Assembly: GCA_964651635.1 (NCBI GenBank)
Contig: CAZYWT010000002.1
Location: 1 to 48,643 of the forward strand
Source: an uncultured Candidatus Saccharibacteria bacterium
GTDB taxonomy: Bacteria; Patescibacteriota; Minisyncoccia; Minisyncoccales; CG1-02-41-26
Length of the DNA: 48,643 bases
Reading direction: 5' to 3'
Positions 15,637-41,033 of this stretch are shown one piece after another (within the stretch, counting starts at the first letter, position 1; each line of letters starts with the position of its first letter). The notes below the pieces were generated by a model. It ran no database searches and had not been told where the DNA came from. It was given only the letters and a program-made list of their open reading frames with translations. Position numbers and translations under genes: made by a program.

Positions 15637-15651
15637 GATTCTCGGATTTTT

Positions 15652-15680
15652 CAAAACCCCGACAAATTATCGGGGTTTTG
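15652..15680 (+). terminator. Hairpin CAAAACCCCGA-caaatta-TCGGGGTTTTG between the acidic ORF and the PBP gene
   Basis: An 11-bp perfect stem ends in GGGGTTTT. It could be an intrinsic terminator or attenuator. No long U-tract follows the stem. Confidence 0.4.
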
Positions 15681-22527: not shown

Positions 22528-22980
22528 GTGTTGGATAAAAAAGAACAAATAAAAAAAGAAATAGAATATTTTTTTACTAAAATGAGTTTAAGCGAGACGC
22601 CTTGTAATTTTAATATAGAAAGGGAAAAAGTTTGCTTTGAAATAAAAACAGAAAACCCCAGAACATTGATAGGAAAAAGAGGCGAAGTTATTTCTAACAT
22701 TCAATTTATTTTAGGAAAAATAATACAAAAAAAAATGAAGCAAAGATTATTTATTGACTTTGATGTAAATGGATATAAAAAGAAAAAAGAACAATATCTT
22801 AAAGAATTGGCTCGCGACTACGCCCAAGAAGTTTCTTTTACCAAAAAAATTAAAACCCTTCCCTCTTTATCTTCTTACGAAAGGAGAATAATCCATCTTG
22901 CTCTCCAAAATAAAAACGGAGTGAAAACAGAGAGCCGCGGACAAGAGCCGAACAGAAAAATTATAATAAAACCTGTTTAA
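22528..22980 (+). CDS. jag: Jag/KhpB-type RNA-binding protein (KH + R3H)
   Basis: The KH region reads LIGKRGEVISNIQFILGKI and the R3H region reads LSSYERRIIHLALQNKNGVKTESRGQEPNRKIII. The start is uncertain. I chose GTG at 22528 because the upstream TTG-initiated extension runs through the repeat element. Confidence 0.75.
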   Translation: MLDKKEQIKKEIEYFFTKMSLSETPCNFNIEREKVCFEIKTENPRTLIGKRGEVISNIQFILGKIIQKKMKQRLFIDFDVNGYKKKKEQYLKELARDYAQEVSFTKKIKTLPSLSSYERRIIHLALQNKNGVKTESRGQEPNRKIIIKPV

Positions 22981-24761
22981 TAAATTTGCGGGACAACTAA
23001 AAACGCTCTTACAGATGGCGAGCCCAAAAATGAAATGCGGGAGAGAATAGAGCAATTTCCTATTTTATCATCGGTTAAATTGTAATCGCTCCTTTCAAAA
23101 ACGGAAGTGCATCTCCCCGTTCCTTTGCTACTCCACTCATCTATTGGATTTTGGGCTAAAAGCAGAAAACAATCTCCAATTAATTCCACCGACCTAATTT
23201 GTTCGTCCAAAAAGTTTATTCTCTTTGTCTCCGCCACCCCGTCGGGACTTTGTCGCCTTACTGCTGTTTCTCCCGGAATATTTACGGGGGTTAAATAAGA
23301 GAGTTGTAGAGATTCTTCGGGTAGCCAAATATTCGCATAATCCGCGTCTCCCTCGTCCAACTCTTTCGCTTCCGGTCGGTATATCAAGCATTCTCCCTTT
23401 AAGTCCTGTCTTGTGCAAAACTTTATTTCTTGGCAGGTGGACAAGGGTTGGTTGGAGATAAGATTTACCATAACCGAACTTATATTGTCCACGCTGCCGT
23501 AATCGTCCCCGTCCTTTATGTTTGTGAAGGTGTTCTTGTCGGGCAGAAAATCCCAATCTTCCACATTCCCCACCTCTTCCTTCACTCTCCTTTTTATTTC
23601 TCTTTCCTTCTCCCCAAAAAACAATCTGGCGTTCCCCGTAAAATCCCCCTTTTCAAATAAAACAGCGAAAAAGTCGTAAATTTCATCTAAATTGTTTATT
23701 TTTATGCGAGCAATTTTATTATTGTAGTTTTGGTAATACCCATCTTTTTCTATAAGCAAAGAATTCTCGTCTAATTTTCCGGCCCTCATAGAGAGATGGT
23801 CGGCGTCTTCTTCTTCCGTGTAAAAATGAACTCCGTTTCCAATATCCACCCTAATGGCGGAAAGCGGGGGATACTCCACCTCATTGGCCATTTTATAGTA
23901 ATCTTGTCCTTTACCGCCGGGCATGTAGAGCCGTTCTATCTCGTCATCAGGGAACTCTTTAGTAAAAGTTATATCAACAAACCAATTGTCTGCCGTAGTG
24001 CTTATTGAATGCGAATGTCCATTCTCGTCTATATATTTCTCTCCAGTTACTATAATCGGGTCGCCTTTATAATATTTTTTCGGGTAAAAATAGAAAAGAT
24101 AGTTGTCAAACACTCCTTCATCATTTTTTCTAAGTCCCAATCTTCGCAGCGAGGCAATCTTAAAACCAACCCGCGTTACAACGCAATCTGCCGAGTTGGA
24201 CGGCGAAACATCACCCTCGCATTCTTTGGCGTAGAATTTCCCGTCTCCCAAGGCGCGGGAGAAATCTTTTATCCGCCCGGAGATAGTAAACAATTTATCG
24301 CTCGCTTCTTTCATTTGTTCCACATCTTCATCAGACACCCCCCTCGTCTTGTCGTCGTCGGCTAAAACGGGAGCGTCATCTCTTACTATTGTGGGGGCTT
24401 TTTCTTTTATTTCAATTAAGGTGAGTTGGGGGTTGACAAGATATAGGATTAAATAAGAACCCAAAAGAATCGCCAATCCTAAAAATCCGTTTCCTATATC
24501 CGTTGTGGCTTTTCCTCTTTTTGTTGGGTTGCCGGCCGAAGTAATATACCCAACCCCCGATTTTATAAGAACTCCAAAAACGACAATAGCGCCCAAAATA
24601 ATAGCCCATTCCGTAAAGTATTTAACCATATTTCCAAGAGAACTATTGCCATGGAATTCTACCCCTCCCCCCGGCAAGACGGGATAAACTTGAGCGCTCA
24701 TCATAAGGGGAATTATTACCCCTATAGTTATTAAAACCAATAAACTTATTTTTATTTTCAT
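22977..24761 (-). CDS. T4SS pilin-module (VirB2/TrbC-like) fused to a ~470-aa extracellular domain
   Basis: It has a signal peptide (MKIKISLLVLITIGVIIPLMMSAQV) and two TM helices. The loop and tail read ITSAGNPTKRGKATTDIGNGFLGLAILLGSYLILYLVNPQ. The motif LGSYLIL-LVNPQ is shared with 30940-35979. The C-terminal part contains Cys and an FxxxxFxG motif. Confidence 0.6.
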   Translation of the reverse strand: MKIKISLLVLITIGVIIPLMMSAQVYPVLPGGGVEFHGNSSLGNMVKYFTEWAIILGAIVVFGVLIKSGVGYITSAGNPTKRGKATTDIGNGFLGLAILLGSYLILYLVNPQLTLIEIKEKAPTIVRDDAPVLADDDKTRGVSDEDVEQMKEASDKLFTISGRIKDFSRALGDGKFYAKECEGDVSPSNSADCVVTRVGFKIASLRRLGLRKNDEGVFDNYLFYFYPKKYYKGDPIIVTGEKYIDENGHSHSISTTADNWFVDITFTKEFPDDEIERLYMPGGKGQDYYKMANEVEYPPLSAIRVDIGNGVHFYTEEEDADHLSMRAGKLDENSLLIEKDGYYQNYNNKIARIKINNLDEIYDFFAVLFEKGDFTGNARLFFGEKEREIKRRVKEEVGNVEDWDFLPDKNTFTNIKDGDDYGSVDNISSVMVNLISNQPLSTCQEIKFCTRQDLKGECLIYRPEAKELDEGDADYANIWLPEESLQLSYLTPVNIPGETAVRRQSPDGVAETKRINFLDEQIRSVELIGDCFLLLAQNPIDEWSSKGTGRCTSVFERSDYNLTDDKIGNCSILSRISFLGSPSVRAFLVVPQIY

Positions 24762-24778
24762 ATACTTATTTTATGTTT

Positions 24779-25858
24779 TTATTGATAAATTTCAGGGTTG
24801 ATACTAAAATTATGGCAGCAAGCGTAATTATTAACGCTTCCTCCGCAAAACCAGTCCAAACATTCTGAGTAGGTTTTCCCGTGGCATAAACAGGCGGCGC
24901 ATTCTCCATGGAAAATCCCGTTTTCACAAGCGTCCTCGCACATGGTAAATCTTATATAATTTATTTTTGCCAACGGGGTGGCTGTTCCCGGATTAAACCT
25001 ACTTTCATTGCTTAAACATTCCACACATTCTTCCGTTGGCTCTTTGGCGCACTCGTTTCTACATTCATAAGAATAAATTCTTGGCGAATAATCTCCCCTC
25101 AAAAACGCTTTTCCGCAGACAACCGGCATTTTTATTATATTCTCTTCCGCTCCTTTCTCTAATTTTTCTATTTCTTTTTCATTTAAGACGCAGTTTTTGC
25201 TAACAAGAGACGGCTGGAGCCAACTTCTGGCGAGATTGAGCAATCTTCTGCTCTCTTCCGGTTTTGTGATTTTATCTCCCGCCGTTTCTCCTTGTTTTAT
25301 TAAATCAACCCTTACGGGAACGGTCTTATTTTCTAAAACATCTCTCACCGCTTCTCTGGCTCCTTTTATCCTATTGTAAAATCCTCTTAATTCTTCCACG
25401 CTTTCGGTTAAATCAAAACAGGGTTCTCCCATACATTCCTCTGGCTGACAATTAGGAAGCTTCATTTCTATCGGCAGAGGACCGCTAAAAAAGAAATCAA
25501 TATTAATGCGAGCTGTTAGTCCCTTATCAACTACTCTCGCCTGACAAAGAGAAAAATCGCAAATCGGCGATTCCGTCGGCTCCGTCTCTGTTTCTCCTTT
25601 TCTTGTCAGGGATTTTATTATTTCTTGAATGTATTCCGCGCCGCCCGCAACGCTTTCATGCATATCTTTAACCCTATCTATAAGAGAGCCCAAAAGTTCT
25701 TTTGTTTTTTTAATTGCAAGCCCGGTTGGTATCGGCTCGTCGCAAACAATTGCTTGGGCGTTTGCTCCAAAAGCGGAACTCAAAAGTCCCATTGTTATTA
25801 AAACAAGAACAGCTATTTTTAATTTATTTTTTCCATTCATATATTTATAATAAACCAA
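24779..25858 (-). CDS. Secreted cysteine-rich protein, unknown function
   Basis: A signal peptide KLKIAVLVLITMGLLSSAFGANAQA is present; the likelier start is the Met at 25840. The C-terminal third is packed with Cys clusters (ECRNEC, ECVECL, MCEDACENGIFHGECAACLCHG, WFCGG, YACCHNF). Confidence 0.7.
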   Translation of the reverse strand: MVYYKYMNGKNKLKIAVLVLITMGLLSSAFGANAQAIVCDEPIPTGLAIKKTKELLGSLIDRVKDMHESVAGGAEYIQEIIKSLTRKGETETEPTESPICDFSLCQARVVDKGLTARINIDFFFSGPLPIEMKLPNCQPEECMGEPCFDLTESVEELRGFYNRIKGAREAVRDVLENKTVPVRVDLIKQGETAGDKITKPEESRRLLNLARSWLQPSLVSKNCVLNEKEIEKLEKGAEENIIKMPVVCGKAFLRGDYSPRIYSYECRNECAKEPTEECVECLSNESRFNPGTATPLAKINYIRFTMCEDACENGIFHGECAACLCHGKTYSECLDWFCGGSVNNYACCHNFSINPEIYQ

Positions 25859-25876
25859 TTTTAACCTATTGCCAAA

Positions 25877-28800
25877 TTATCTTTTGGCGCATTTAACCTT
25901 AACAAATCCGTCTATATTTGCGTCTTCGCAAGTTAAGGCAAACGATTTCTCCCCTTGTCCTTCCAAGTCCTTTACCCCCGGAAGTTCTATTTGGCAAGAC
26001 GATTCTTTCCCCTCCAATTGATAATTTTTTGTATAAAAGTTTACATCTAACGAGTAGTTTTGTCCGCTGTAATTAACTTCGCAAACATTTTCTTCGCAAA
26101 AAACTTCCAATCCCGACGGGGCCTCGGGGCATTTTGTTTGAATATCTATCCATTCCCTATAATTCCATCTCTCGCAATCCAAAGAACAAAAATAGGGAAG
26201 AGAAGATATTGTGTAGGTCGCTCTTTCTCCCTCTTCTTTGTCGCATTTTACAGAATAAGATTTTTTAGAGCAATTTATCGCCAACTCGCCTTTTTCTATT
26301 TTTGTTTGGCAGTTTCCCGGGATAGTGGAATCTTCTTCTATTATTTCACAAGTGAGAGCCCCCGTATAAGTTATTATTTCTTCGTTGGCGTCTTGTCTTT
26401 CCGGAGGAGATATTTTATCCTCCAAATTTTGAGCCATTTTTTTCATCGGGTGTCTTAATATATAAACTAAATAACAATAAGGGCTGCTGAGCGGCTCAAC
26501 CGTGAGGGGCATATTAGAAATACAAAAAGGATACTTGCACAAACTTTGCCCGCAAAGGCAATTTTGGCTGGCAAAATGAACCGCCGTGGCAAGAGCCCAA
26601 ACGGCTTGCGCTTTTCTCTTTATTTTTTCTCCCTCATCCTTCAAAGATTTTATAGAATTATATTTTACAGGATAGATGTTAAATATATCGCGCAGTTTCA
26701 ACGCTCCTATTTTTATATCAAAATCTTTAACCCCTCTTCGGATTATATCTATTTGAGTTAAATTACTCCTTAAAACAGAAAAGTTAGACTCTATAATGGA
26801 GAACAAATTACCCACATCCGGGCAAACGGGACCGCCTCTGGGCGTTGTTATATCATTGCTTCCGGAAGCGGGAAGAGCGACGCAATCCAATGGTTGGAAG
26901 CTTAAACCTTCGCTATCCTCGTCTTTTTTGGCTCCTTCGGAAAGTTTTTCGGGGAGTTCTTTGAGCATTTTGATTAAAATCTGAGCATTCTCATAAGCTG
27001 TTTTGGCGTCGCTTATAGATGTTTCTATTCCGCCCATAAACAAAGAATAGGACCTAATTCCTAAAAGAATAGAGTAAATTGACATAACTCTGTTTAAGGG
27101 CTGTCTAATGTTAGTGTTTTCGAGGTTGCAAAAGAATTTTAATCTTTCAAGAGAGGCGGCGCTTTCTTCATCCCCGGAGAAAATATCTTTTTCTTGTCGC
27201 CAATTGTCGCCCCAGCCCAACCCCTCTCCTCTTATATGTTCAAGATGAAGGGCGATATCCTTACAAAGAGAAGGGTCTTGGGAGTGGAGGCAGTTTTCCT
27301 TCCAGGCCTCTTTTACGGCCACTATCTTGTCGCATTGCTCTTTTGCTCCCGCAAGTCCCGTCCACCCCTCGCAACTTTCTTTAAGTTCCATTATCTCTTC
27401 CTCTTCAAAAGGGCAAACATCCGACAAATAATCAGCTCTTTGGGTACAAGCGCTATAAAACGAGCGCTCGCTACCGCCCATATAAGTCATATTCCCCTCA
27501 CTAACGGCGCCGTCGCACACTTTAGAACTCCAAAAATGGACGGGGTCCTCACCCTGCTCTAAGTGGTAGGGGGCCTCCGGGTCGCATATTCCTCTAATTC
27601 TTTCTCCCAACCCCTCGTTTTCTGTTAAAAATGGTAAAAGTCGCTCCCCTGCCCATCTTAAATTGTTATTCTTATCAAGTTCTTTTACTCTTCTCTCGGC
27701 TTCCACAAGGGTTCTCTCCAGCGCTTCCACCCTTGAGCAAAGTTCCTCGTCTAATTTTTTGCTTCGCTTGTTATATTCAGGATAGATTTCCTCGTTACAT
27801 TTTTGAAGAGTTTCGCCGGGGTTGCTGCTCATCAAGACGGGGTCTATCGCTTGGCAACTCACAGCCATTTTATTGTTGCCCAATATCTTTGCCTCTAAAT
27901 AAGGGATGTCGTTTTGTCTCGTTTTCTCCAATTTTTCTTGAACGGTCTTTCCATTTGTTTTTTCTTTTAGGAAGTAGTAATCGGGATTTTCCGAAAGATT
28001 TAGGAGAGACGAAAATCCCGCCTTTAGCCCATATTCTTTATTTTCCAAATTAAAATAGCCGTTAAAAAGACTGTTAATAGCGCTGTATTTTTCATCCAAA
28101 AAAGAAACGGGGCTTTCCATAAATTTATCAAACCCCTCTCCCTCTATCCCCGCTTCTTCCATCCCCGCGTTGCCGGCGAAAATATCGTCCATTTTTGTTA
28201 TTTTAACTTCCGGAATATCCAAGGAAGGGTTTAGTTCTTTGGTTTTTTTTGCCACCTCGCTAATTTTCTCGGATAATTTTTCCAAAGAGAAAATGGATTT
28301 AGTAATCCGCTCCAATTCTCTAAAATCTTTATTAAAATTGTCTATTTCAAAACATCTAATTCTTTCCAGAAATCCATTAGGAGAGGCGGGGCAGTTATAG
28401 GGGCCGGTCGCTTCCCCTAAATTTGCCAAGAATTTATCTATATCGTCGGCTAAATTTTCCTCCGTTTGGTTTGCCAACCTTCGGGCGGCTTGAATGGCGC
28501 TGTAAAGTTCTTGGGACTTTTCTTTGGTGGCAAGGAGCAACTTTATATATTCATAAGCGTTTATATCCTCTCCCCTTTCCCAGATATTTACAATTTCCCG
28601 TATTATTTCTTTTATTTTTTCCAACTTATCGTTCTTCAATTTTAAGATATTGGAAGAAGGATTAGAGAGTTTTTTAATATCGTTTTGATATTTATTTATT
28701 TTTTGAACGGATAAGGGAGAATTTATAAAATAATTCAAAATTGGATGGGCTATTTTTGCTTTACTCCATGTGAGGTCGCCGAGGTTGCTCACGGAAAAAT

Positions 28801-30937
28801 CGGGGTTTATATATTCCCAAGCCAATATCCCCCCCATTTCCCTTAAAAAATTTAGCTCCGGGAGAGAAATTTCCATAAAATCTCGTTTTTGATTCCAATC
28901 CTGATAAAAAAGTTCAGAATCAAACTGGCAGTTTTCCCCCGCTATTTCTTTGGCCTCTTCCGTTGTGGGAGCTACTGTTTCCCCCTCTTCCTCTCGCCAA
29001 AATATCTTTTTGCCCTCGTCGTCTATGGGCAGATTTTTTGTTTGAGCCAAAAACTCTTGGAAGGAATTAAATATGTTAAAAAAGTTGTCATTAAACCAAA
29101 AATTTTTATCCGTTTGGGAGTTTTGGTCCCAATTACGCTTGTGAAACCAAAAAAAAGCAAGTTTTCTTAAAAGTTCCTCATTAGACATTGGCATGCCCGC
29201 CTTCCACACGGAAAATTTTTCAAAGGAGTTAAGGGCGTTAATTAAACCAAAAATAGAATCAGCCCCTGCCTTGAAAGACGCCAACCAATTTTCTTGCGGG
29301 TTGTTGGGAATGGCGCAGGAATAGTTGCAAGTATATTCATTTTCACAAGAAACGGCAACCACTCCCTTTACTTGAGGGCACGACATATTGTATTCTTCCG
29401 CCGTTTTTGGCAAAGGAATAGCGCAAGTCCCTCCTCCGCCCGAAGGAGCGCCCCCGCAACTTAACTGATAAGAATTGGTAGTTCCCACTCTCGCGATTTT
29501 ACATTGGTTGGGGTTTTTTTCTATTTTTGCTCCGCACTCGCTCTCGCAACTTACCTTTAATTCTCTGGGAAGTTCTTTGCAGGAAGCGGACTCTTCAAAA
29601 TGGGGTTCCCACCATTTTATATCTCCCTTCATAGGGAAATCGGCGCAATCCACAACGCAAGAATAATTGGGCGCCGAAGGTTTGGTTATAGTATAGACAA
29701 GATTTTCTTCCGAGCAAGAGATGTTATAGCTCGAAGAACCCGAACAATTTATTTTTAACAAATTGTTTTCTATGTAATATAAGCAGTCTCCTTCCATCCC
29801 CGCGCTTCCGGTAGTTTGGCAAGAAAATCCCGTTTTTTGGCATTCAAAATCCGTCGGCTCGTTATGCGCGTCCGTTGCTTCTTCGGAAATAATAAATTTA
29901 GTCGCCGAACGCAATCTTTTAGCAAAGCCCGACGGGCTTTCAAAGTGAGCCAAAAACAACTGAATTGCTTGGTCCAACTTTTCTCTTTTTTCTTTGTCTC
30001 CCTGGGAGGAGCTCCCTTCCGTTTCATAAAGAAAACTTATCCATTCCACCCTTTGAAGAGTTTTCATCATTTTTTCCGTCTCTCCCTTTATATCTCCGGC
30101 CGCCGAGAGCGCTTCCGATTTTGCTTGGCTATATCGGGAAAGATTTTCGCCATATTCGCTAAATCCCAACTCTCCCTCCTGGCCGATGGTTTTTATCACC
30201 TTTCCCAAAGAATCGACAAATGTCTTAAAATATTGAACTTGCGCGAAAAGATCGTCTATAAAATCTATGGCGTAATTTACCGTGGATAAAATTTGGTCGT
30301 AAACCTTTTTTAATTCGTTAAGTTGCTTGGCGATATTTGCCACTTTTCTTAGAAAATTAGCGATTCCCGTGGGAGCCAGCCAGTCCGCGATGGTTAAGAT
30401 ATTTACCGTGTAGGTTACTTGCCCCAAAGTAAAGGGGCAGTGGCTTCGGCAATTTTTTAAGAAAGAGCATTCCGTTAGCGGGTCGGTTTTATTAAACATT
30501 TTTTTGGCAAAATAAGCGATATTGGAAGCGGCTCTTTGGATAGAAATAAATTCTCCGCAGGCGCGGGCAAGAGCGTATCTTTCTTCTCGGCTCATCTTTT
30601 CGGCTTCTTCGGGGGTGATAATTCGCAATTCGCACTTTTCGGGGATATAAGGAGCGACTAAAAGAGGAAACCCTTTTTCGTCGGTTGTATCTACTTGGCT
30701 TTCAGCTTCAAAAAAATTTTCTTTATTGAATGGGTGTTTGTCCGACACCCGCTTTATTTTCCAGTCACCAACGGCCAAATATCCATCCTCGGAAATATAA
30801 ATTTCCTCCGGGAGAGGAATTCCGTCCAAAATGTCTCCTATAAATTTCCAGATATTAAAAGCGTCGGCTCTTTGCGGGCTTATAAGAATAACAACCCCTA
30901 TAACCCCTATTAAAATTGTTTTTATCAGTTTTTTCAT
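25877..30937 (-). CDS. Giant (1686 aa) secreted cysteine-rich protein with a duplicated Cys-module
   Basis: A signal peptide MKKLIKTILIGVIGVVILISPQRADA is present and there is no further TM helix. Two homologous ~170-aa Cys modules lie at about nt 29300-29845 and 25880-26368. Long helical regions lie between them. Confidence 0.8.
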   Translation of the reverse strand: MKKLIKTILIGVIGVVILISPQRADAFNIWKFIGDILDGIPLPEEIYISEDGYLAVGDWKIKRVSDKHPFNKENFFEAESQVDTTDEKGFPLLVAPYIPEKCELRIITPEEAEKMSREERYALARACGEFISIQRAASNIAYFAKKMFNKTDPLTECSFLKNCRSHCPFTLGQVTYTVNILTIADWLAPTGIANFLRKVANIAKQLNELKKVYDQILSTVNYAIDFIDDLFAQVQYFKTFVDSLGKVIKTIGQEGELGFSEYGENLSRYSQAKSEALSAAGDIKGETEKMMKTLQRVEWISFLYETEGSSSQGDKEKREKLDQAIQLFLAHFESPSGFAKRLRSATKFIISEEATDAHNEPTDFECQKTGFSCQTTGSAGMEGDCLYYIENNLLKINCSGSSSYNISCSEENLVYTITKPSAPNYSCVVDCADFPMKGDIKWWEPHFEESASCKELPRELKVSCESECGAKIEKNPNQCKIARVGTTNSYQLSCGGAPSGGGGTCAIPLPKTAEEYNMSCPQVKGVVAVSCENEYTCNYSCAIPNNPQENWLASFKAGADSIFGLINALNSFEKFSVWKAGMPMSNEELLRKLAFFWFHKRNWDQNSQTDKNFWFNDNFFNIFNSFQEFLAQTKNLPIDDEGKKIFWREEEGETVAPTTEEAKEIAGENCQFDSELFYQDWNQKRDFMEISLPELNFLREMGGILAWEYINPDFSVSNLGDLTWSKAKIAHPILNYFINSPLSVQKINKYQNDIKKLSNPSSNILKLKNDKLEKIKEIIREIVNIWERGEDINAYEYIKLLLATKEKSQELYSAIQAARRLANQTEENLADDIDKFLANLGEATGPYNCPASPNGFLERIRCFEIDNFNKDFRELERITKSIFSLEKLSEKISEVAKKTKELNPSLDIPEVKITKMDDIFAGNAGMEEAGIEGEGFDKFMESPVSFLDEKYSAINSLFNGYFNLENKEYGLKAGFSSLLNLSENPDYYFLKEKTNGKTVQEKLEKTRQNDIPYLEAKILGNNKMAVSCQAIDPVLMSSNPGETLQKCNEEIYPEYNKRSKKLDEELCSRVEALERTLVEAERRVKELDKNNNLRWAGERLLPFLTENEGLGERIRGICDPEAPYHLEQGEDPVHFWSSKVCDGAVSEGNMTYMGGSERSFYSACTQRADYLSDVCPFEEEEIMELKESCEGWTGLAGAKEQCDKIVAVKEAWKENCLHSQDPSLCKDIALHLEHIRGEGLGWGDNWRQEKDIFSGDEESAASLERLKFFCNLENTNIRQPLNRVMSIYSILLGIRSYSLFMGGIETSISDAKTAYENAQILIKMLKELPEKLSEGAKKDEDSEGLSFQPLDCVALPASGSNDITTPRGGPVCPDVGNLFSIIESNFSVLRSNLTQIDIIRRGVKDFDIKIGALKLRDIFNIYPVKYNSIKSLKDEGEKIKRKAQAVWALATAVHFASQNCLCGQSLCKYPFCISNMPLTVEPLSSPYCYLVYILRHPMKKMAQNLEDKISPPERQDANEEIITYTGALTCEIIEEDSTIPGNCQTKIEKGELAINCSKKSYSVKCDKEEGERATYTISSLPYFCSLDCERWNYREWIDIQTKCPEAPSGLEVFCEENVCEVNYSGQNYSLDVNFYTKNYQLEGKESSCQIELPGVKDLEGQGEKSFALTCEDANIDGFVKVKCAKR

Positions 30938-33900: not shown

Positions 33901-35979
33901 TCGCGAAAAATCTTCCCAACATTTTTCCGGCTCCGAGAATTCTTTAAAGATATTAGGGTTGTTTTCCTTATAATCCCCGATAAGGTCAAGGGCTGGCTTG
34001 GTAATTTGGTAAGCGAGTTCCCAAACCATATTTTCTATTTGCTTGTCTATCCTCTCTTTTAGGTCTTTTAATTGGGCTTCCAAAAATTTATCTGTTTTTT
34101 CTAAGGGGATTAAAGCAAAATCGGGCAGAACTTGAGAGACCTTCTTTTTTAAGTTTTCTTTCAAAAAGGGAATTTGCTTGTCCAAAGATTTAGTGAGAGC
34201 GCCTTTCATCGCTATATCTAAAACATCCACTAAATCGTTTTCTATAATACTCTTTAATTCTTTAGAAAAATTAAAGTCCAAAACGGAACTTTTCAACGCT
34301 TTGGATATTTTCTCCGGCAGTTGCTCCATAATTGGAGCGGTGAGAGTGTTTGCCACCAAATTAGACAAAAAATCGGGCGGTATTTCTTTTTTCTCGCAGT
34401 TTTCTTTAACGCATTCCTCGTATTTTTCCTCGTCCTCGCTTTTCTCCGGGCATCCTTCTTCCATCTCTTCTTTTCTATAAGAAGCTAAACATTTTTCCAC
34501 ATAATATTTATCTGATTTTTGAACAAGGTCTTTGTTGAGCCGCTCTCTAAAAGATTGAGCGTATTCTTCCGAATTCATCTGAAAAACATCCAGTAAATAA
34601 TTATCTATCCCTTCATCTAAGGCTTTTTGGGTAAGGTTGGCGTAATAAGAAGTGTCTATCGCAAACTCCCCTTCTCCAAAAGCGTCCTCCAAACATTCCT
34701 CCGCCACTCGCTCTATCTCTTCAACTCCCACCCGCAAAAGAACGCTCACAAGGTTAATGGCTAAACTTTCCTCCATTGTTTCTTGGTTCTCCCCTTTTTG
34801 GCTTAAAGGGAAATACTTTCCGCTCAAGGGAGCGTATATGGTAAAATCATCGGGGGTTCCCGCTTCAAAGAGAGTTTGTTCTTTTTGGGAAGGATGTTTT
34901 TGAATGTCTATATCTTCGTATTGATTTCTCCAATTTTCCAACTCTCTATAATAATCAGTTTGAGTATATACATTTATTAAATTTGTGTCTAAAAATTCAG
35001 ACACTTTTAACTTTAGCGTTTTCTCTAAAAATCCGATTTCCTCGCTTGATATTTTGTAATTTAGCACCTTTAATCCCCCCCACTCCCCTATTAAATTTTT
35101 TCTTTTCTCTCTCGCTAGTTCCAGGTTGCAATTTTCCGAGTTTCCGCATCCCTCTCCTTCGGCGTCGCACTGATTTTCGCAAGTTTCTTCCTCGTTGCTC
35201 ATTAGCGCTTTTCCCTCGGCGCAAACTCCCTTGCTCTCTTTCGTTGCTATGTGGGATTGCGACATTCCGCAACCGCAATTTTCTAAAATAGCGTTGATTT
35301 CTTCGGAAATTTCGATTACGCTCAACATCCTGCCTTCCGCTTCCAAAAAAGGGATTTCGGCTCTAAAAAATTCGCTTCTCTCATCGCCGCTCTCGGTGAG
35401 GGCTTTTTCTACATATTCTTTTACTGCTTCATCGTTCATGCTTGCGAGCGTCATTTTTTTATCTAAATAGTCCAACGCTTCATCTATTTGCTCTCCGCCG
35501 GAAGAGTAAGCCAAAATTGCCTTCTCGCCCGATGACGCTATCTCGGGCAAAACGGGGGGCGGGATTTTTTTGAACTCTGTTTGTAAAACTAAAATCTGCG
35601 GGTTTACAAGAGACAGGATTAAATAAGAGCCCAAAACAATCACAAATCCCAAAAGAGCGTTTTGCATTCTTTGGTTGGCGATATTTCGCAGAGTTGGTTT
35701 GACGCCGGAGAGAAGATAAAGAACCCCGCCGGCTATAAACACGGCTAACACTATTCCGGTGGCTATAAAATAGAAAAGAATTAAAAAGTAGCTTCCGTAG
35801 GCAGACAACCTTTCATCCACCTTTAACGCGCCATCGCTTATTTTTTCCTCTATTGTGTTGGGGGTATCTACCCCGGGTAATTTAGGATAAGAAACATTCA
35901 AAGCGTTGGCGGAAAATATAGGCAAAAATAAGGCGAAAATTAAAAAAATAAGAAATAAAATATTTAGTTTTTTAGGCAT
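30940..35979 (-). CDS. Giant (1679 aa) protein: N-terminal VirB2/TrbC-type pilin module fused to a ~1540-aa Cys-rich extension
   Basis: It has a signal peptide (...LPIFSANA) and TM1 (YFLILFYFIATGIVLAVFIAGGVLYLL). The loop is SGVKPTLRNIANQRMQN and TM2 is ALLGFVIVLGSYLILSLVNPQ. The C-terminal tail is rich in CC/CxxC (CCNLGAALVC, FCCYDESCNIC, LCCQGSYYNEETDQCC). Confidence 0.7.
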   Translation of the reverse strand: MPKKLNILFLIFLIFALFLPIFSANALNVSYPKLPGVDTPNTIEEKISDGALKVDERLSAYGSYFLILFYFIATGIVLAVFIAGGVLYLLSGVKPTLRNIANQRMQNALLGFVIVLGSYLILSLVNPQILVLQTEFKKIPPPVLPEIASSGEKAILAYSSGGEQIDEALDYLDKKMTLASMNDEAVKEYVEKALTESGDERSEFFRAEIPFLEAEGRMLSVIEISEEINAILENCGCGMSQSHIATKESKGVCAEGKALMSNEEETCENQCDAEGEGCGNSENCNLELAREKRKNLIGEWGGLKVLNYKISSEEIGFLEKTLKLKVSEFLDTNLINVYTQTDYYRELENWRNQYEDIDIQKHPSQKEQTLFEAGTPDDFTIYAPLSGKYFPLSQKGENQETMEESLAINLVSVLLRVGVEEIERVAEECLEDAFGEGEFAIDTSYYANLTQKALDEGIDNYLLDVFQMNSEEYAQSFRERLNKDLVQKSDKYYVEKCLASYRKEEMEEGCPEKSEDEEKYEECVKENCEKKEIPPDFLSNLVANTLTAPIMEQLPEKISKALKSSVLDFNFSKELKSIIENDLVDVLDIAMKGALTKSLDKQIPFLKENLKKKVSQVLPDFALIPLEKTDKFLEAQLKDLKERIDKQIENMVWELAYQITKPALDLIGDYKENNPNIFKEFSEPEKCWEDFSRGYFYNYTNERCYKATPREISDFTSGRGIANALVRSKKDGDVGAFESDFTQEALCRGAGYCWDQIGGEVCKSCKNLNLGGLAPTRENLARWGKGAVEFLVNFGEEFMVALLRTAAHTLTKYAQVWVEDSILKPFAPYLFQLSTFQEEIHNFLNSSVREALPAQISAYLGSSVEQILSDICAKKEAGGSYTIYNEKIEVSEEVGKAACGIDRELHQSLLDQLSENGKFGEKVATALNTEIMKLFDQVFKNADIDKHLNKTVAQLIWPELNLSPEVMRKLLKATPKELICGEISFIDYDCKEWSFDLTAGLLPYPSDPAGEKGYCYFLNYACQNPLKGWDRAQGLILSDFINTYCQQLEIKKEKLCSEQGISPCVLRDLTLSEEKKDLIDRGEDACAALIENSAAYTIFNDQIEHNFGDIEKKDKEKSQEIYLWLFATFTDKRVQGEIQKLALDRGMGREEMLHIATQADAMEEGQIKKLERGLQSFTAWFSSGGTVEEALTTPCLGAVEGLTGSPCEGSNMLAKNIYWLLGSGACSLVERTYLAEEKEGDVGENLKNLFITCRILTQTLEESLGIEKRLINYIKDPYNTIFSLMWTKLENYERPEPLNNLLDALFRGKISSLLMRVKAKDVGGPGWSEEQKQEFAKQANKLGEALSKDPISYLLNGKSLIYMIFKKMGKENWLQKSMDVSKWKEIQEVLAKTPTDIAAHYLTDPLNKEWALFRSPIDYIAETKIPELNNPYIDTIGKAAGITKFVYEIYGKWEDIKDSVNEAVDSVQGTIRSSLDTAFIEYPTRGVNWLIQSLGMGATDEIGDDIADRLAGKCKDATPEEKNNESCQGEKEIYNKTTKQCCNLGAALVCKDRCREIETSESCDIEKGEERDERDDGVFCCYDESCNICRQTYAVARAKNAEPKAKCEREGDERKEKTTEDEEEMVLCCQGSYYNEETDQCCVDLLTCISNKLTDFLKMLTLTIKTGLPINSNSPIFSD

Positions 35980-36391
35980 ATTTTTTCATTGCGTTTTTCA
36001 TTCCTATGGTCCATCCGAACCAAAGGGAACCCACAATGGGCAAGGGCTCCAGCAAAAAACTCCAGCCCTTTAAGGGGACTATAAATCTTTGCGTTTCTAT
36101 GGAAGCGACAATGGTTAAAGACAAAAATGCCACAAGGTCGAGAAAAAAAGACAGGATTGTTCCAACTACCCCTACATAGGGTATTAGTTGGATTATTTCG
36201 GCGGGGATTTCCAGCAAATCAAATATAAAAGCGAGGGTTATGGCTATTACGGGTCCATCTTCTCTTAATCGCGACGATTTGTCTTTTTTTGCCAAACTGC
36301 TCGCTTCTTTCCAACGCTCTTTTCCCTTGCCATAGAGTTCTTTTCCTTTTTGTTTGGCTTTTTGGTAAACTTGGCTTAATCCGGGACTCAT
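35972..36391 (-). CDS. Small membrane protein of the T4SS-like operon, unknown function
   Basis: 139 aa with a basic N-terminus followed by 3 predicted TM helices. It overlaps both neighbours (4 nt and 8 nt). Confidence 0.6.
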   Translation of the reverse strand: MSPGLSQVYQKAKQKGKELYGKGKERWKEASSLAKKDKSSRLREDGPVIAITLAFIFDLLEIPAEIIQLIPYVGVVGTILSFFLDLVAFLSLTIVASIETQRFIVPLKGWSFLLEPLPIVGSLWFGWTIGMKNAMKKYA

Positions 36392-38178
36392 AATTTTTTC
36401 TTTTTCTTTTTAATTTTTTGAATTTCTTCCGGGGAAGAAGTTATAATCTGGTCTTCGGTGTAAGAGGCCGTTACTTTTAAGGCGACTCTCTTTCGGCCGG
36501 CGATAAATATCCCTTCTCCCACATCGGATTCCAAAAGCAAGTATTTTTCTCTTTCCGTTAAATTAAAAGTTTTTTTGGCCGTGTCTATTGTGGCCGGCGA
36601 TTGTTTTAAGAGAATTTGGAGAGAGGAGTTTGTTATAATCGGCTTTCCGTAATCAGACCTCATAAAATCGGATATGTCTTGGGTTATAGTGGAGACCCCC
36701 AACCAGTATTTTCTTGACCTTTTACAAATCCCAAAAAGAAAGGACGCTCCGTCTTCCGTTTTCATAACCCACCAGGCCTCGTCCACTAAAAGTATTCTTT
36801 TTTTCAATTCTTTTCTGATGCTGTTCCAAATATAACGAAGCACCATATACATAGCCATCGGGCGAAGTTCATCTTCCATATCTCTAATGCCAAAAACCAC
36901 TAAACTTTTGTCCATAGATATGTTGGTGGGGTTGTTAAAAAAATTGGCGTAACTGCCGGTAGTAAATTTTCCCACTCTTGAAACAAGAGATTCAGCCCCC
37001 TCCATAGTGGAGAGAACACTTTCAAAATCCGACATAAGGGGCGTTTTTTCTTCCCAAGTTTCAGGGCTTGTTTGGGGAGTTATGTCTTTGGCCGCGTAAG
37101 TTTCGGTAATTGCCCTGTCTATAATAGAGTCCTCTTCCGAGGTTAGTCCCCCCAGCATAATCCGAAAAAGTCCCACCAGGTTTATTATATTGGTTCTCAA
37201 AACATCTTCGGCGTCCTCGTCTTCGGTTGGTTTGGGCACATCAAAAGGATTAAGATGATTGTCGGAAGTGAGCGATATCTTAAAATAAGAGCCGCCCACG
37301 GCGGCGGCGAGCCACTGGTATTCGTTTTCCGGGTCCATTATAATTCCGTCAACTCCTTGCATTAAATAGCGGAGCATTTCCAGTTTTGCCATATAGCTTT
37401 TTCCCGAACCTGCCTTGGCAAAAATACAAGTGTTAGCGTTCTCCAGCGTAAATCTGTCAAAAAGAACCAAAGAATTATTGTGTCTGTTTACTCCGTAGAG
37501 AATTCCCTCGTTGGCGCTTAAATCCGGGGAAACAAAAGGGAAAATACTGGAAAGGGGCTCTGTGTTCATGGGAGTGTGAACGCCTATTTTGTCTAACCCG
37601 TAAGGAGCGGTGGAGACAAAACCCTGCTCCGATTTTAAGAGAGTTGGTTTTAAGTAGATAAGACGGGACTCAAAAATAGAACGAAGTTTTGTTTCCAACT
37701 CTCGCAGATGCGCTTTGCTGTCGCCGTATATAGTGATGAAAACTCCTAATTGAAAGACCCTCTCTTCGGCTCTTTGGAGCGAATCCCGCAAATTTTCTAT
37801 ATCTTGATAAGCCGTTTCCAAAGTCGGGTCTCTAATTAGCCCCTTTTCTGTTCTTTCCATAAGTTCCGCTTGAATGTTGGTGAGTTTTTTTCGCAGTTGT
37901 CTTAAAATTTCTCCCGATTCCACGGGGTGAATGTGAAAAGCAATGTCCAGCGGGTAATTTATATTTATAGCCGGCGATATCCAGCCGGTGGTTAAATATC
38001 GGGGGTAAGAAAAAACAAAAAATGTTTTCAAAAACTTCTCTCCCAGTTTTATGTAATCCTGCGATATTTCAACCGAAGACGGAGCGATAATGTCGCCTAC
38101 CGATATCGCTCTTTCCCTGTAATCAATTCCCTCTATTGTTCCCTTGTCTTTTTTTGTAAAAGGAAGGTTAATATTCAT
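36388..38178 (-). CDS. virB4: VirB4/TraC-class T4SS ATPase
   Basis: 596 aa. Walker A is IFAKAGSGKSY and Walker B is RILLVDEAWWVM. The N-terminal domain carries YPRYLTTGWISPAI, and the C-terminal part carries QSPATID/ERE. Confidence 0.85.
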   Translation of the reverse strand: MNINLPFTKKDKGTIEGIDYRERAISVGDIIAPSSVEISQDYIKLGEKFLKTFFVFSYPRYLTTGWISPAININYPLDIAFHIHPVESGEILRQLRKKLTNIQAELMERTEKGLIRDPTLETAYQDIENLRDSLQRAEERVFQLGVFITIYGDSKAHLRELETKLRSIFESRLIYLKPTLLKSEQGFVSTAPYGLDKIGVHTPMNTEPLSSIFPFVSPDLSANEGILYGVNRHNNSLVLFDRFTLENANTCIFAKAGSGKSYMAKLEMLRYLMQGVDGIIMDPENEYQWLAAAVGGSYFKISLTSDNHLNPFDVPKPTEDEDAEDVLRTNIINLVGLFRIMLGGLTSEEDSIIDRAITETYAAKDITPQTSPETWEEKTPLMSDFESVLSTMEGAESLVSRVGKFTTGSYANFFNNPTNISMDKSLVVFGIRDMEDELRPMAMYMVLRYIWNSIRKELKKRILLVDEAWWVMKTEDGASFLFGICKRSRKYWLGVSTITQDISDFMRSDYGKPIITNSSLQILLKQSPATIDTAKKTFNLTEREKYLLLESDVGEGIFIAGRKRVALKVTASYTEDQIITSSPEEIQKIKKKKKKL

Positions 38179-38181
38179 AAT

Positions 38182-38844
38182 TTAATCCAAAAGTTCGGGC
38201 AATATCTCCGGATAATACCCAAATTCCGATTGTCTTGGGTGGTGGAGTGCCCAAAAAAGTTCAATGAGTTCCGGGGTGGTGAGAGGGACGGCGTTTAATC
38301 CGCATCGCCGCAGGCCTATGGCGGCATATTCCATCCTTTGCCAAAGTTGGTCGCGAGCTCTTTGAAAATTTTCTTTGCCTAATCCAAAGTATTTATCTTC
38401 TCCGCCTCCTCCCTTGAAAATGTTTTGGAGAAGTCCTCCGCTGACCCCTATTGTTTCATTTAGGGTAAAAGGGACTACCACGAAAAACTCTTTTTTCATA
38501 ATCGTTCCTTTTTTAATCAACTTTTCCACAAATTTTCTATAGCCGCTTATTTGAACTTTCAAAAGTTCCGATTTTTGCTTTTCTTCCAACTCTTTTAGTT
38601 TGTCAAAATAGCCGGTGATATTTAAGCGGCGGGATTGAACTATTATTTGAGTGGAAAAATCAAGAGAGTTTAAGAAACTTTGGAATTGATAAGTAGTGGC
38701 TTTTTGCTCATCTTCGGATTTTAGGTCAAAATTCACGGAAGAGGTGAGTAAAACTCCTCGCAGGGACTTGTTTTTTAGAATTAGAGTTCCGTCTTTTATC
38801 CCTTCAAATTTTAAGAAATTTTGGGCGGGGTTGTTACTAAACAT
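38182..38844 (-). CDS. Stand-alone protein resembling the non-ATPase N-terminal region of Gram-positive-type VirB4 proteins
   Basis: 220 aa with no P-loop. The pattern FEGIKDGTLILKNKSLRGVLLTSSVNFDLKSEDEQKATTYQFQSFLNSLDFSTQIIVQSRRLNI matches my recollection of PrgJ/Orf16-type VirB4 N-termini. This is inference. Confidence 0.4.
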   Translation of the reverse strand: MFSNNPAQNFLKFEGIKDGTLILKNKSLRGVLLTSSVNFDLKSEDEQKATTYQFQSFLNSLDFSTQIIVQSRRLNITGYFDKLKELEEKQKSELLKVQISGYRKFVEKLIKKGTIMKKEFFVVVPFTLNETIGVSGGLLQNIFKGGGGEDKYFGLGKENFQRARDQLWQRMEYAAIGLRRCGLNAVPLTTPELIELFWALHHPRQSEFGYYPEILPELLD

Positions 38845-38847
38845 AAA

Positions 38848-39264
38848 TTATTGTTTGTTTTGTTTCCACTCTAATTGAGAGGAAAGTTCTTTTATGCGAC
38901 TGCCGGGAGAAATTTTTAAGGGTTCTCGTTCTTTTTCTTCCTCTTTGGGTTTTTGATATTTTATTCTCAAAGAGTGAGGCGGAACATCTTTCTTTTCCCA
39001 AAAATATCTTTTGGCGGAAGTAAAAAAACTAAAATATTGAGCGATAAGTTGAGGTATGGTGTAGCCCTCTACTCGGACAAAAAGAAAAAGCAAGACAACC
39101 GTAACGGTGGCGAAAAAGATAACATAAAAAGCGGTCGGCGGGACTATATAATATAGCCCAAAAAGGACACCTCCCACTATCCCCAAAATAATTAACTGGC
39201 GAAAAGTGAGAAGATTAAAAAACTTTGTTTGATGCTCTAAGAATTTTGGAACTTTATATCGCAT
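38848..39264 (-). CDS. PrgI-family (VirB3-like) T4SS membrane protein
   Basis: The N-terminus MRYKVPKFLEHQTKFFNLLTFRQLIILGIVGG is followed by two TM helices. It lies directly upstream of the VirB4 genes, which is the canonical VirB3-VirB4 order. Confidence 0.7.
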   Translation of the reverse strand: MRYKVPKFLEHQTKFFNLLTFRQLIILGIVGGVLFGLYYIVPPTAFYVIFFATVTVVLLFLFVRVEGYTIPQLIAQYFSFFTSAKRYFWEKKDVPPHSLRIKYQKPKEEEKEREPLKISPGSRIKELSSQLEWKQNKQ

Positions 39265-39342
39265 TGTTATATTTTATCACGAAACAATTAAAATGGGCAA
39301 GTGGCCGGTAAGTGGTGGGTAGGTGGCGAACAAGTGGCGGGC
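39265..39342 (-). promoter_or_regulatory. Putative promoter (TTGCCC-N18-TGATAAAAT) abutting four 11-bp-phased AAGTGG repeats
   Basis: The minus-strand extended -10 element is at 39271-39279 and the -35 at 39295-39300. Only 6 nt separate the -10 from the ATG. On the plus strand, AAGTGG/AGGTGG occurs at 39299, 39310, 39321 and 39332. Confidence 0.4.
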
Positions 39343-39353
39343 AAAAACAAAAC

Positions 39354-39390
39354 GGGCGGTTGTCCCGATGTTATATCGGGACAACCGCCC
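39354..39390 (-). terminator. Intrinsic terminator (16-bp perfect stem) after the 349-aa gene
   Basis: The hairpin is GGGCGGTTGTCCCGAT-gttat-ATCGGGACAACCGCCC. On the minus strand it is followed by GTTTTGTTTTT, and on the plus strand by TTTATTT, so it may act in both directions. Confidence 0.8.
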
Positions 39391-39453
39391 TTTATTTCTA
39401 AAAGAGGCGCAATAAAAAAGCCCGGGTAGTTAATGTCCCGGGCTATAGGGCGG

Positions 39454-40503: not shown

Positions 40504-40590
40504 TTTTTAACCTCCTTTTTTAATGAACTTTCTTACCTATATTATACCACAAACACACTCTATTTGTCAATGCCGCCATTGCCAAAAAAT

Positions 40591-40644
40591 CAGAGACCCG
40601 ACCTCTGGCAAACCTCTGGCAAATTGCCAGAGGTCGGGTCTCTG
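40591..40644 (-). terminator. Palindromic-repeat pair acting as a probable intrinsic terminator after the 118-aa gene
   Basis: The perfect 21-bp arms are CAGAGACCCGACCTCTGGCAA and TTGCCAGAGGTCGGGTCTCTG, with a 12-nt loop. The minus strand continues with ATTTTTTGG. Confidence 0.7.
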
Positions 40645-40665
40645 GCGATCTTTAATAATTTAGAG

Positions 40666-41022
40666 TTAGTCGATTTTTTCTCGGTAAATATCGTTAAGTT
40701 TGGGAGGAGATTTTTTGCTCTTTTCTTCTTTCTCTCCCATTGTTTTTGCTCTGGGTATAAGTTTATTTTCCAATTCTTGGGCTATTTTTTCCGCTTTTTC
40801 CAGTGTTGTGTTTAGTTCCAATTTTATAGAGACCGGGAACTCTTCTTTGGATAAATCTCCTTTCCCCCTATAACTAACCAGTTCCGCTAAAATTTGGATG
40901 TTGGGCTTTCCCCCCTTTTTAACTTTGCGAAAAAACTCTTTATTATCCTCGCTTAATCCTTCCTTTTCTAAAATTTCCTCTATTATATCCGATGAATTTT
41001 CGGGAAATATTATTTCTGCCAT
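40666..41022 (-). CDS. Small acidic/charged cytoplasmic protein, unknown function
   Basis: 118 aa with no TM helix. It lies 11 nt downstream of the VirB6-like gene on the same strand. Confidence 0.6.
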   Translation of the reverse strand: MAEIIFPENSSDIIEEILEKEGLSEDNKEFFRKVKKGGKPNIQILAELVSYRGKGDLSKEEFPVSIKLELNTTLEKAEKIAQELENKLIPRAKTMGEKEEKSKKSPPKLNDIYREKID

Positions 41023-41033
41023 AATTTAATTTA

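Follow-up and report, generated by a model that had tools for sequence, protein, structure and literature searches.

What would a secretion-system pilin do with a 480-residue extension at its C terminus? The question is raised by one gene on a 48,643-nucleotide stretch (positions 1-48,643 of contig CAZYWT010000002.1, assembly GCA_964651635.1) from an uncultured, ultrasmall Candidatus Saccharibacteria bacterium of the Patescibacteria type; we analyzed the whole stretch and refer to it as the window. The gene, at 22977-24761 on the minus strand, is a frame of 594 codons without interruption, opening with an ATG and encoding a protein that begins MKIKISLLVL. It is the last member of a co-directional, tightly spaced minus-strand string that runs from 43136 to 22977 and that also encodes VirB4, VirB6/TrbL, TrsD and PrgI/VirB3 proteins of a type IV secretion system (T4SS); in the original prediction, it had likewise been placed last in the operon. 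We find that the protein joins an N-terminal module which, by sequence homology, belongs to the VirB2-like pilins of family PF18895 to a C-terminal unit predicted to adopt a beta/gamma-crystallin fold, and that both this fusion and its gene context are conserved. The parts of the gene and of its product are the following.

22977..24761, minus strand: complete pilin-crystallin fusion gene, stop codon at 22977-22979 (open reading frame (ORF) list; full-length alignment with 20 relatives)
24693..24761, minus strand: Sec-type signal peptide, residues 1-23 (hydrophobic segment 1-29; AlphaFold2 helix 2-21)
24420..24692, minus strand: VirB2-like T4SS pilin module, residues 24-114 (PF18895, profile search, AlphaFold2 helices, conservation)
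24543-24608, minus strand: first transmembrane segment (TM1), residues 52-73, within the pilin module
24498-24542, minus strand: basic loop TSAGNPTKRGKATTD, residues 74-88, within the pilin module
24426-24497, minus strand: second transmembrane segment (TM2), residues 89-112, including LGSYLILYLVNPQ, within the pilin module
24282..24419, minus strand: acidic linker, predicted disordered, residues 115-160 (predicted local distance difference test (pLDDT), composition)
23886..24281, minus strand: variable beta-rich middle region, residues 161-292 (AlphaFold2 strands, pLDDT 55-83)
23448..23885, minus strand: predicted beta/gamma-crystallin-type domain 1, residues 293-438 (AlphaFold2 model, Foldseek, conserved motifs)
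22980..23447, minus strand: predicted beta/gamma-crystallin-type domain 2, residues 439-594 (AlphaFold2 model, Foldseek, cysteine conservation)

The N-terminal region follows the plan of signal peptide, TM1, loop and TM2 that had been proposed for it. Hydropathy analysis reveals three hydrophobic segments (residues 1-29, 46-76 and 89-116), and the AlphaFold2 model of the full-length protein, built from 21 sequences, contains a signal helix at residues 2-21 and a two-helix hairpin formed by residues 42-74 and 79-114. The loop is made basic by Lys81, Arg82 and Lys84. Cleavage of the signal peptide would occur after the sequence ...MMSA, and a YPxLPG motif that is conserved in the family alignment follows directly. 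The strings quoted in the original prediction are all found in the protein where it had put them, with WAIILGAIVVFGVLIKSGVGYI at residues 52-73, TSAGNPTKRGKATTD at 74-88, LGSYLILYLVNPQ at 100-112, FAVLFEKGDFTG at 365-376 and VDNISSVMV at 424-432. The Pfam model T4SS_pilin (PF18895) matches the 594-residue protein with E=3e-4 and 21.2 bits, and it matches all 21 aligned family members, with a best E-value of 1.6e-8. When a profile of the module was used as the query, we retrieved 73 proteins, nearly all of them 74-244 residues long and carrying PF18895, at E-values down to 1.9e-43; some also match PF04956 (TrbC/VirB2). The few source names among these matches read 'pilin' or 'Type IV secretion system pilin' and come from bins of Patescibacteria, Minisyncoccia and Parcubacteria.

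For the C-terminal unit, we built an AlphaFold2 model of residues 285-594 with 54 sequences, and the resulting beta-rich domain model has a pLDDT of 85.7 and a predicted template modeling score (pTM) of 0.85. A Foldseek search of the PDB with this model returned 45 matches at E<=1e-3, the best with E=4.5e-6 and a probability of 1.0, and all 50 of the top 50 entries listed are beta/gamma-crystallins, comprising gamma S, D, B, C, E and F, beta B1, B2, B3 and A4, and geodin. The TM-score is about 0.6 (normalized to the target) over ~290 aligned columns, indicating that both domains of the two-domain crystallins are covered. The full-length model, whose mean pLDDT of 72.8 rises to ~90 at residues 350-570, likewise has gammaE-crystallin as its top match in the PDB (E=2.6e-4, probability 1.0); the third place is taken by bacterial nitrollin (E=0.015), and IPSE, another crystallin, is matched as well. 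The crystallin assignment had been offered tentatively and in refutable form, and the beta-rich model and the composition of the Foldseek top 50 support it. What had been described as a possible crystallin-like C-terminal domain is, in the prediction, a tandem two-domain unit of ~300 residues instead of a single domain, and it is preceded by the acidic linker and the variable beta-rich region.

In the model, domain 1 comprises a YPPLS sequence of the HPPLS type, Greek key 1 (GVHFY...YNNKIARIKI) and Greek key 2 (FAVLFEKGDFTG...VDNISSVMV), and domain 2 comprises Greek key 3 (IKFCTRQDLKGECLIY...LDEQIRSVEL) and Greek key 4 (CFLLLAQN...FLVVPQIY). The FxxxxFxG...S signature on which the assignment was originally based thus corresponds to the second Greek key of domain 1, but the hairpin half of that signature does not stand on its own: the protein has two matches to the strict form [YFW]-x4-[YF]-x-G against 0.50 expected (P=0.09), which is not beyond chance. 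Among the four keys, the strict hairpin is found only in key 2 (FEKGDFTG at 369, with the serine pair at 428-429). A relaxed version is present in key 3 (CTRQDLKG at 449, together with the invariant Ser524), and keys 1 and 4 have no signature. The composite motif, in which the hairpin is followed 25-60 residues downstream by [DN][DN]x[ST]S, is rare in shuffled sequences (P about 0.002).

Several observations weigh against the crystallin assignment. It rests on a predicted structure, and the root-mean-square deviations of the Foldseek superpositions are 7-8 Å. The Pfam crystallin models PF00030 and PF08964 give no match to the protein at E<=10; among the 21 relatives, sub-threshold matches are seen to Crystall_3 in five (best 0.0015) and to Crystall in four (best 0.006). 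In addition, the family consensus has only degenerate versions (FNDKAxxI, KxPSS, DNIxSI) of N/D-N/D-x-x-S/T-S, the Ca2+-binding motif of microbial crystallins, with position 5 usually not Ser or Thr and usually Lys or Arg; strings resembling it in our protein are YNNKIAR, VDNISS (residues 424-429) and LDEQIRS. Comparing the domains with hhalign, we obtained a probability of 43% for domain 1 against domain 2, confined to the FNDKAxxIEI/FxDNIxSIxI strand, and values below 1%, which are not significant, for the middle region against either domain, so that neither an internal duplication nor a third crystallin domain is demonstrated by sequence. Searches of Pfam, NCBIfam and PDB sequences with residues 115-594 gave no credible match; SnoaL_3 (E=0.023) and a nanobody (E=0.04), which came up there for the C-terminal part, were rejected as chance hits. 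From the structure prediction, we regard the C-terminal unit as a putative divergent and insertion-rich member of the beta/gamma-crystallin fold.

The remainder of the extension is less regular. Acidic residues predominate in the linker (13 Asp/Glu versus 7 Lys/Arg across residues 112-160), and the AlphaFold2 pLDDT falls below 50 at residues 110-133, 136-146 and 151-156. The middle region, which contains two cysteines (181 and 193), has a hairpin resembling that of a Greek key, YPKKYYKG at 226, whose family consensus YSEPNFKG is present in many relatives. It is also the least conserved part of the protein, ranging from 84 to 163 residues in length across relatives at a mean pairwise identity of 0.24; the corresponding values are 0.26 for the linker, 0.37-0.39 for the crystallin domains and 0.53, the highest, for the pilin module. 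This pattern of identity, together with the length variation, fits a conserved assembly module attached to a more variable exposed part.

Conserved motifs of the extension are HPPLS, GPGVYLY..ERY...FNDKAxxIEIKN, DxLAVLxEDxxFxGxxRIFFE, GN and YGKVxxxSS, followed by CxEVRLCTxPxFxGxCLVYL, LPxYxPxNIP, FxDNIxSIxIxGxCLVxLFEN, PGxHSxxF and CASAIAIYPIK. Six cysteines (443, 449, 458, 531, 551 and 570) are found in domain 2, of which Cys443, Cys449, Cys458, Cys531 and Cys570 are invariant in the family alignment. The conserved cysteines, with the six of domain 2, suggest a rigid, disulfide-stabilized extracellular module. The cysteine of the C-terminal CASAIAIYP motif, present in at least 90% of the family, is replaced by Ser583 in the window protein, which has the extra Cys551 where relatives have His-Ser; this pair of changes may reflect a rewired disulfide.

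The fusion is a conserved architecture. A word-indexed search with the full protein found a single relative, P0001, through the pilin module. With residues 115-594 as the sole query, an exhaustive HMMER search recovered 53 representatives at E<=1e-3, 18 of them at E<=1e-10 (best 8e-24) and most of them 520-660 residues long. Even though the pilin module was absent from this query, it is present in 47 of the 53 representatives, and the best 20 relatives align end to end with the window protein. The family is rare and unannotated: the relatives fall in clusters of one or two sequences that carry neither source names nor precomputed Pfam matches, a look-up of the clusters of ten relatives having yielded no source name, and an exact-sequence look-up of the 594-residue protein in public assemblies returned no record. 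A second, shorter type of pilin-crystallin fusion is seen in the metagenome proteins P0001 (442 residues) and P0057, which have more canonical hairpins (FVYGDENYTG and VVFTSQNYEG) and a weak match to Pfam Crystall (E=0.13). P0001 is related to the family profile (89% probability, E=2.2e-6), indicating that pilin-crystallin fusions extend beyond the 53 representatives.

Gene order is conserved as well. In a collection of species-representative genomes, seven loci matched, four of them over the full length, and the order found in the window recurs at loci L002-L005 and at the metagenome loci L009-L011. It consists of a giant gene, a second giant (1312-1746 residues), a protein of 344-387 residues and the pilin-crystallin gene (559-625 residues), continuing with a convergent jag, yidC, (yidD) and rnpA and then dnaA, dnaN, a penicillin-binding protein (PBP) gene, ruvC and yebC. 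The neighbors at L002 are clear homologs of the 1679-, 1686- and 359-residue proteins of the window. The stop codon of our pilin-crystallin gene overlaps the convergent jag, whose end lies at 22980. The flanking genes jag, yidC, rnpA, dnaA, dnaN and a class A PBP, together with a low G+C content of 28-45%, put the locus beside the replication origin, in a genome that is small and AT-rich. A scan for promoters and terminators around the gene gave counts close to the shuffle expectation.

A second copy of the pilin module lies in the same string, and its relation to the first was another claim that the original prediction had left open to refutation.

35572..35979, minus strand: paralogous pilin module at the N terminus of the 1679-residue protein (gene 30940-35979; BLASTP, family hidden Markov model (HMM), PF18895)

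The similarity of the two modules is significant and supports their paralogy. They share 30% identity over 145 residues by BLASTP (E=2e-15), and an HMM of the module built from 21 family members matches the 1679-residue protein with E=1.7e-22 over HMM positions 5-122. PF18895 itself matches that protein under the gathering score (E=0.022). When either module was searched against the window with tblastn, the sole match was the other module (E=2e-12 and 3e-11), and in a six-frame search with the module HMM the next-best segment reached only E=0.69. In these searches, which covered the window only, we find no unfused pilin in its 48.6 kb. The LGSYLIL-LVNPQ signature that had been cited for the pair is indeed common to both modules and reflects homology, but it is family-wide in PF18895 and is no sign of a recent duplication: an LGSYLIL..INPxL motif is also present in the free pilins P0058 (125 residues) and P0060 (124 residues). 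These free pilins end ~10 residues past the motif, which implies that the passenger of the 594-residue protein is joined at the normal pilin C terminus. The original prediction had suggested that the two paralogs might be major and minor (tip) subunits. With a passenger of about 1550 residues on the 1679-residue protein and a large one on its sister, neither fusion resembles a conventional major pilin.

The two fusions enclose two large cysteine-rich genes, and the T4SS core genes lie upstream.

35972..43136, minus strand: upstream T4SS core genes (Pfam and NCBIfam matches)
41034-43136, minus strand: VirB6/TrbL-like protein, 700 residues (Pfam TrbL, E=2.8e-8)
Within 35972..43136, minus strand: 118-residue protein, member of the T4SS string
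39454-40503, minus strand: 349-residue membrane protein inside the T4SS string
38848-39264, minus strand: PrgI/VirB3-like protein, 138 residues (Pfam PrgI, E=1.1e-8)
38182-38844, minus strand: TrsD-like protein, 220 residues (NCBIfam TrsD, E=4e-5)
36388-38178, minus strand: VirB4 ATPase, 596 residues (Pfam TraG P-loop, E=2.9e-24; NCBIfam conju_CD1110 VirB4)
35972-36391, minus strand: 139-residue membrane protein, directly upstream of the 1679-residue pilin fusion and overlapping it
24779..30937, minus strand: two secreted cysteine-rich proteins between the pilin fusions (signal-peptide-like N termini)
25877-30937, minus strand: 1686-residue cysteine-rich protein (ORF list)
24779-25858, minus strand: 359-residue cysteine-rich protein (ORF list)

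The VirB4 protein passes the equivalog cutoff of NCBIfam NF045971 (CD1110 family) with 362 versus 325 bits. T4SS clusters of Patescibacteria have been described as comprising VirB4, TrsD, PrgI/VirB3, VirB6 and pilins of the VirB2-like kind; they often lie close to dnaA, and most of them lack a relaxase (PMC12102498). The window operon has the composition and origin-proximal position reported there. We detected neither a coupling protein nor a relaxase within the window. The PrgI/VirB3-like, TrsD-like and VirB4 proteins also match NF045975, a fused Mycoplasma-type VirB4, at 11-117, 102-233 and 292-893, successive matches which indicate that the three genes (38182-39264 and 36388-38178) are collinear with the single fused ATPase of other monoderms. 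The 349-residue protein has a coiled-coil-like C terminus and a long (KEKKK)n low-complexity stretch that derives from a T/C-rich tandem repeat at 39862-39962, and the 139-residue protein, which might be an unconventional pilin of the PrgF type, has a Lys-rich cytoplasmic N terminus and no family match.

Together with the two pilin fusions, the 1686- and 359-residue proteins make up a conserved four-gene block, and homologs of the former occupy the same position at L002-L005. No Pfam or NCBIfam family matches the 359-residue protein; for the 1686-residue protein, the single match of a Pfam search, THSD1_D2 (E=0.082), is at chance level. The latter has a cysteine-rich segment near residues 390-430 (INCSGSSSYNISCSEEN...VYTITKPSAPNYSCVVDC) and a similar one near residues 1590-1625 (INCSKKSYSVKCDKEE...TYTISSLPYFCSLDC), suggesting an internally repeated module.

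How might such a protein work? The reading to which we lean, and which we hold to be moderately probable, is that it is a VirB2-like pilin of the Patescibacteria type that displays a disulfide-stabilized crystallin-fold module outside the pilus or cell for contact with the host. The protein would be exported by the Sec pathway and its signal peptide removed, and the two-helix hairpin would then be seated in the cytoplasmic membrane, its basic loop on the cytoplasmic side and both termini outside. Every conjugative pilus solved so far has the loop turned to the lumen and the two termini on the outer surface, and the pilins assemble on a VirB6 pentamer (bioRxiv 10.64898/2025.12.18.695078). If the VirB4-driven machine of the upstream genes extracts the hairpin onto the VirB6-like platform, in the manner of other VirB2 pilins, the loop would line the lumen and the C terminus would point outward, so the crystallin-fold module would be presented on the outside or at the tip of the pilus, held by the ~46-residue linker. 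There it may serve as a rigid, disulfide-stabilized surface unit for contact with, or recognition of, a host cell, its specificity most likely set by the loop insertions and by the variable stretch at residues 161-292. It would probably work together with the 1679-residue pilin fusion and the two secreted cysteine-rich proteins of the four-gene block, and we favor a minor, tip-like or decorating subunit as its place in the structure.

A number of findings speak against a polymerizing pilin with an adhesive passenger. The PF18895 score lies under the gathering cutoff of 26.6 bits. The module profile finds no solved VirB2-type pilin among PDB sequences, its best match (E=0.84) being an unrelated transmembrane hairpin, and no pilin structure is among the top 50 PDB matches listed by Foldseek for the full-length model. 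HtrII transmembrane hairpins (E about 1) were all that the module profile retrieved from the PDB sequences, which leaves no sequence bridge to the solved VirB2 pilins. Mature pilins are expected to be small, about 70-200 residues, and this protein has 594; the characterized VirB2 homologs are all small (bioRxiv 10.64898/2025.12.18.695078). If each subunit bore a 50-kDa passenger, a helix of the VirB2 type would become crowded. Polymerization is a proposal, and since beta/gamma-crystallin folds are multifunctional, adhesion is a guess.

The size argument carries over to the main rival, which we consider possible but doubtful: a non-polymerizing surface protein whose hairpin has been co-opted as a membrane anchor, acting in the envelope as an accessory of the T4SS, structural or wall-spanning, or as a pilus-independent adhesin. 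The 480-residue passenger is four times the size of the pilin module, and the characterized VirB2 pilins are all small; the ~1550-residue passenger of the sister fusion is hard to fit into the packing of a filament, and the flexible linker of 46 residues suits a tethered surface domain. However, the conservation of the pilin module as the best-kept part of the protein (0.53) goes beyond the needs of a mere anchor and includes the family-wide pilin motifs YPxLPG and LGSYLIL..NPQ, the gene is always found in a T4SS-linked block, and the operon encodes no other pilin from which the pilus proposed for VirB2-bearing systems could be made.

That last point can be turned into a different structure, which we consider unlikely. 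In this lineage, the T4SS may operate without a plain pilin: VirB2-type subunits, each with a large folded passenger, would make up its filament, a display pilus resembling a 'bottle-brush', or else a short stub seated on the VirB6 platform. If this were true, the VirB2 hairpin would be a general handle for the export and presentation of host-recognition modules, crystallin domains in one case and the 1550-residue passenger in the other. Such a mode of surface display is not known for any T4SS and would be a candidate host-contact organ of uncultivated epibionts.

The lesser rivals concern the passenger. Myxococcus Protein S is a calcium-dependent beta/gamma-crystallin of the spore coat, and the tandem domains of our protein could by analogy multimerize and wrap the pilus or cell in a layer that protects or stiffens it, instead of binding a host ligand. 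We judge such a sheath or coat, assembling by itself, quite improbable. The tandem two-domain fold, the conserved cysteines, which suggest a very stable extracellular domain, and the likeness of VDNISS (residues 424-429) to a Ca2+-binding motif all agree with it, but that motif is not kept in the family, where Lys or Arg usually fills position 5 and KxPSS is the form found in the second key.

Other proteins with a beta/gamma-crystallin fold include the yeast killer toxin WmKT, a Streptomyces killer-toxin-like protein and the protease inhibitor SMPI. A passenger that damages or inhibits envelope functions of the host would suit the lifestyle of Patescibacteria as host-exploiting epibionts (PMC11665869), and the related fusion P0001 has a very weak match to Pfam Inhibitor_I36. 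With that match at chance level (E=3.5), with the significant Foldseek matches all to lens-type or microbial crystallins and none to a toxin or inhibitor, and with a permanent membrane or pilus tether being unusual for a toxin, an anti-host effector is very improbable indeed. Finally, an error of gene calling or assembly that ran a short pilin gene together with an unrelated gene downstream of it has nothing but the unusual size to recommend it, and its vanishingly small probability follows from the conserved architecture, which excludes an artefactual fusion: the 594 codons are uninterrupted, 47 of 53 independent representatives have the pilin module and, in seven independent assemblies, the same position is occupied by one ORF of 559-625 residues.

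Despite the marked similarities between this protein and several known systems, the combination found here differs from each of them. Like the VirB2-like pilins of Patescibacteria (PF18895; PMC12102498, PMC10633639), the module has a Sec signal, two hydrophobic helices with a short basic loop between them, and the motifs YPxLPG and LGSYLIL..NPQ, and it is encoded with VirB4, TrsD, PrgI/VirB3 and VirB6 close to dnaA. The pilins described to date are products of small genes, often in arrays of 2-11 (PMC12102498, PMC12857230, PMC10633639). Divergent paralogs within one locus are a feature of these arrays as well, with a reported average identity of 25% compared with 30% here. In contrast to the arrays, the only two pilin modules of the window carry C-terminal passengers of ~480 and ~1550 residues and are separated by two large secreted cysteine-rich proteins. 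VirB2, TrbC and TraA of Gram-negative T4SSs and PrgF of pCF10 have the same helical-hairpin topology, presumably with assembly on a VirB6 platform and termini outside, and some relatives of our module match Pfam TrbC/VirB2 (PF04956). By sequence, however, no similarity of the module to solved pilins is detectable; it bears a large passenger and shows no sign of cyclization or of a bound lipid, and the window lacks a VirB5-type tip protein as well as a coupling protein and a relaxase.

The predicted tandem with two Greek keys per domain is shared with two-domain beta/gamma-crystallins, both the vertebrate gamma and beta proteins and Protein S, nitrollin and geodin, as is, in one of the four keys, the F-x4-F-x-G hairpin (369-376) followed by the conserved serine pair 428-429. 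In lieu of the usual ~175 residues, the window unit has ~300 because of long loop insertions, and it further differs in its six cysteines in domain 2, its degenerate Ca2+ motif and the membrane pilin to which it is attached. Adhesive subunits of other pili, whether tip or minor ones, such as VirB5/TraC of T4SS pili, PilY1 with the minor pilins of type IV pili and the tip pilins of sortase systems, resemble it in that a globular domain for target contact is associated with a filament. These subunits are not VirB2 homologs, VirB5 being all-helical and type IV pilins an unrelated family, whereas the adhesin-like module of the present protein is covalently built into a subunit of the VirB2 type. 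Our literature survey, limited in scope, found no report of pilin-crystallin or other passenger-bearing pilin fusions in Patescibacteria T4SSs. What is new is the conserved combination and its context; the pilin family and the fold are themselves known.

Elsewhere in the window, we observed three sets of repeats. Four head-to-tail copies of a 26-base-pair unit, ATTTGCCAGAGGTCGGGTCTCTGGCG, with 98% matches and an internal inverted repeat CCAGAG..CTCTGG, occupy positions 1-103 at its start. A perfect tandem duplication of 267 base pairs (100% identical, 1.8 copies) lies at 14799-15281, in an intergenic stretch upstream of the PBP gene, and could be either a real recent duplication or an assembly artefact. 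A GAG/GAA-rich 21-nucleotide tandem repeat (7.6 copies) at 15424-15660 is translated in the listed PBP frame into an implausible Arg/Lys-rich N terminus, MRRRRKKRTR..., and in another frame into a poly-Glu/Asp tail that is closed by a TAA near 15625. The PBP probably starts in fact downstream of the listed position.

For Ca. Southlakia epibionticum, the one species tested, the T4SS is essential and so is the pilin array (PMC10633639; PMC12857230), and reviews describe the role of the Patescibacteria T4SS as completely unknown (PMC11665869, PMC12857230). VirB2-like pilins are what separates this T4SS from other monoderm systems, and length filters for 'small' VirB2 genes will overlook members of the fusion type. 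With the present fusion, the known partners of the beta/gamma-crystallin fold, as predicted here, come to include a secretion-system pilin, and residues from about 290 to 594 provide defined soluble domains usable for structural, binding or antibody and nanobody work. The lineage-specific pilin-crystallin design gives a testable hypothesis for how the T4SS makes contact with host cells, and, conserved as it is, it may provide these epibiotic cells with their means of touching a host.

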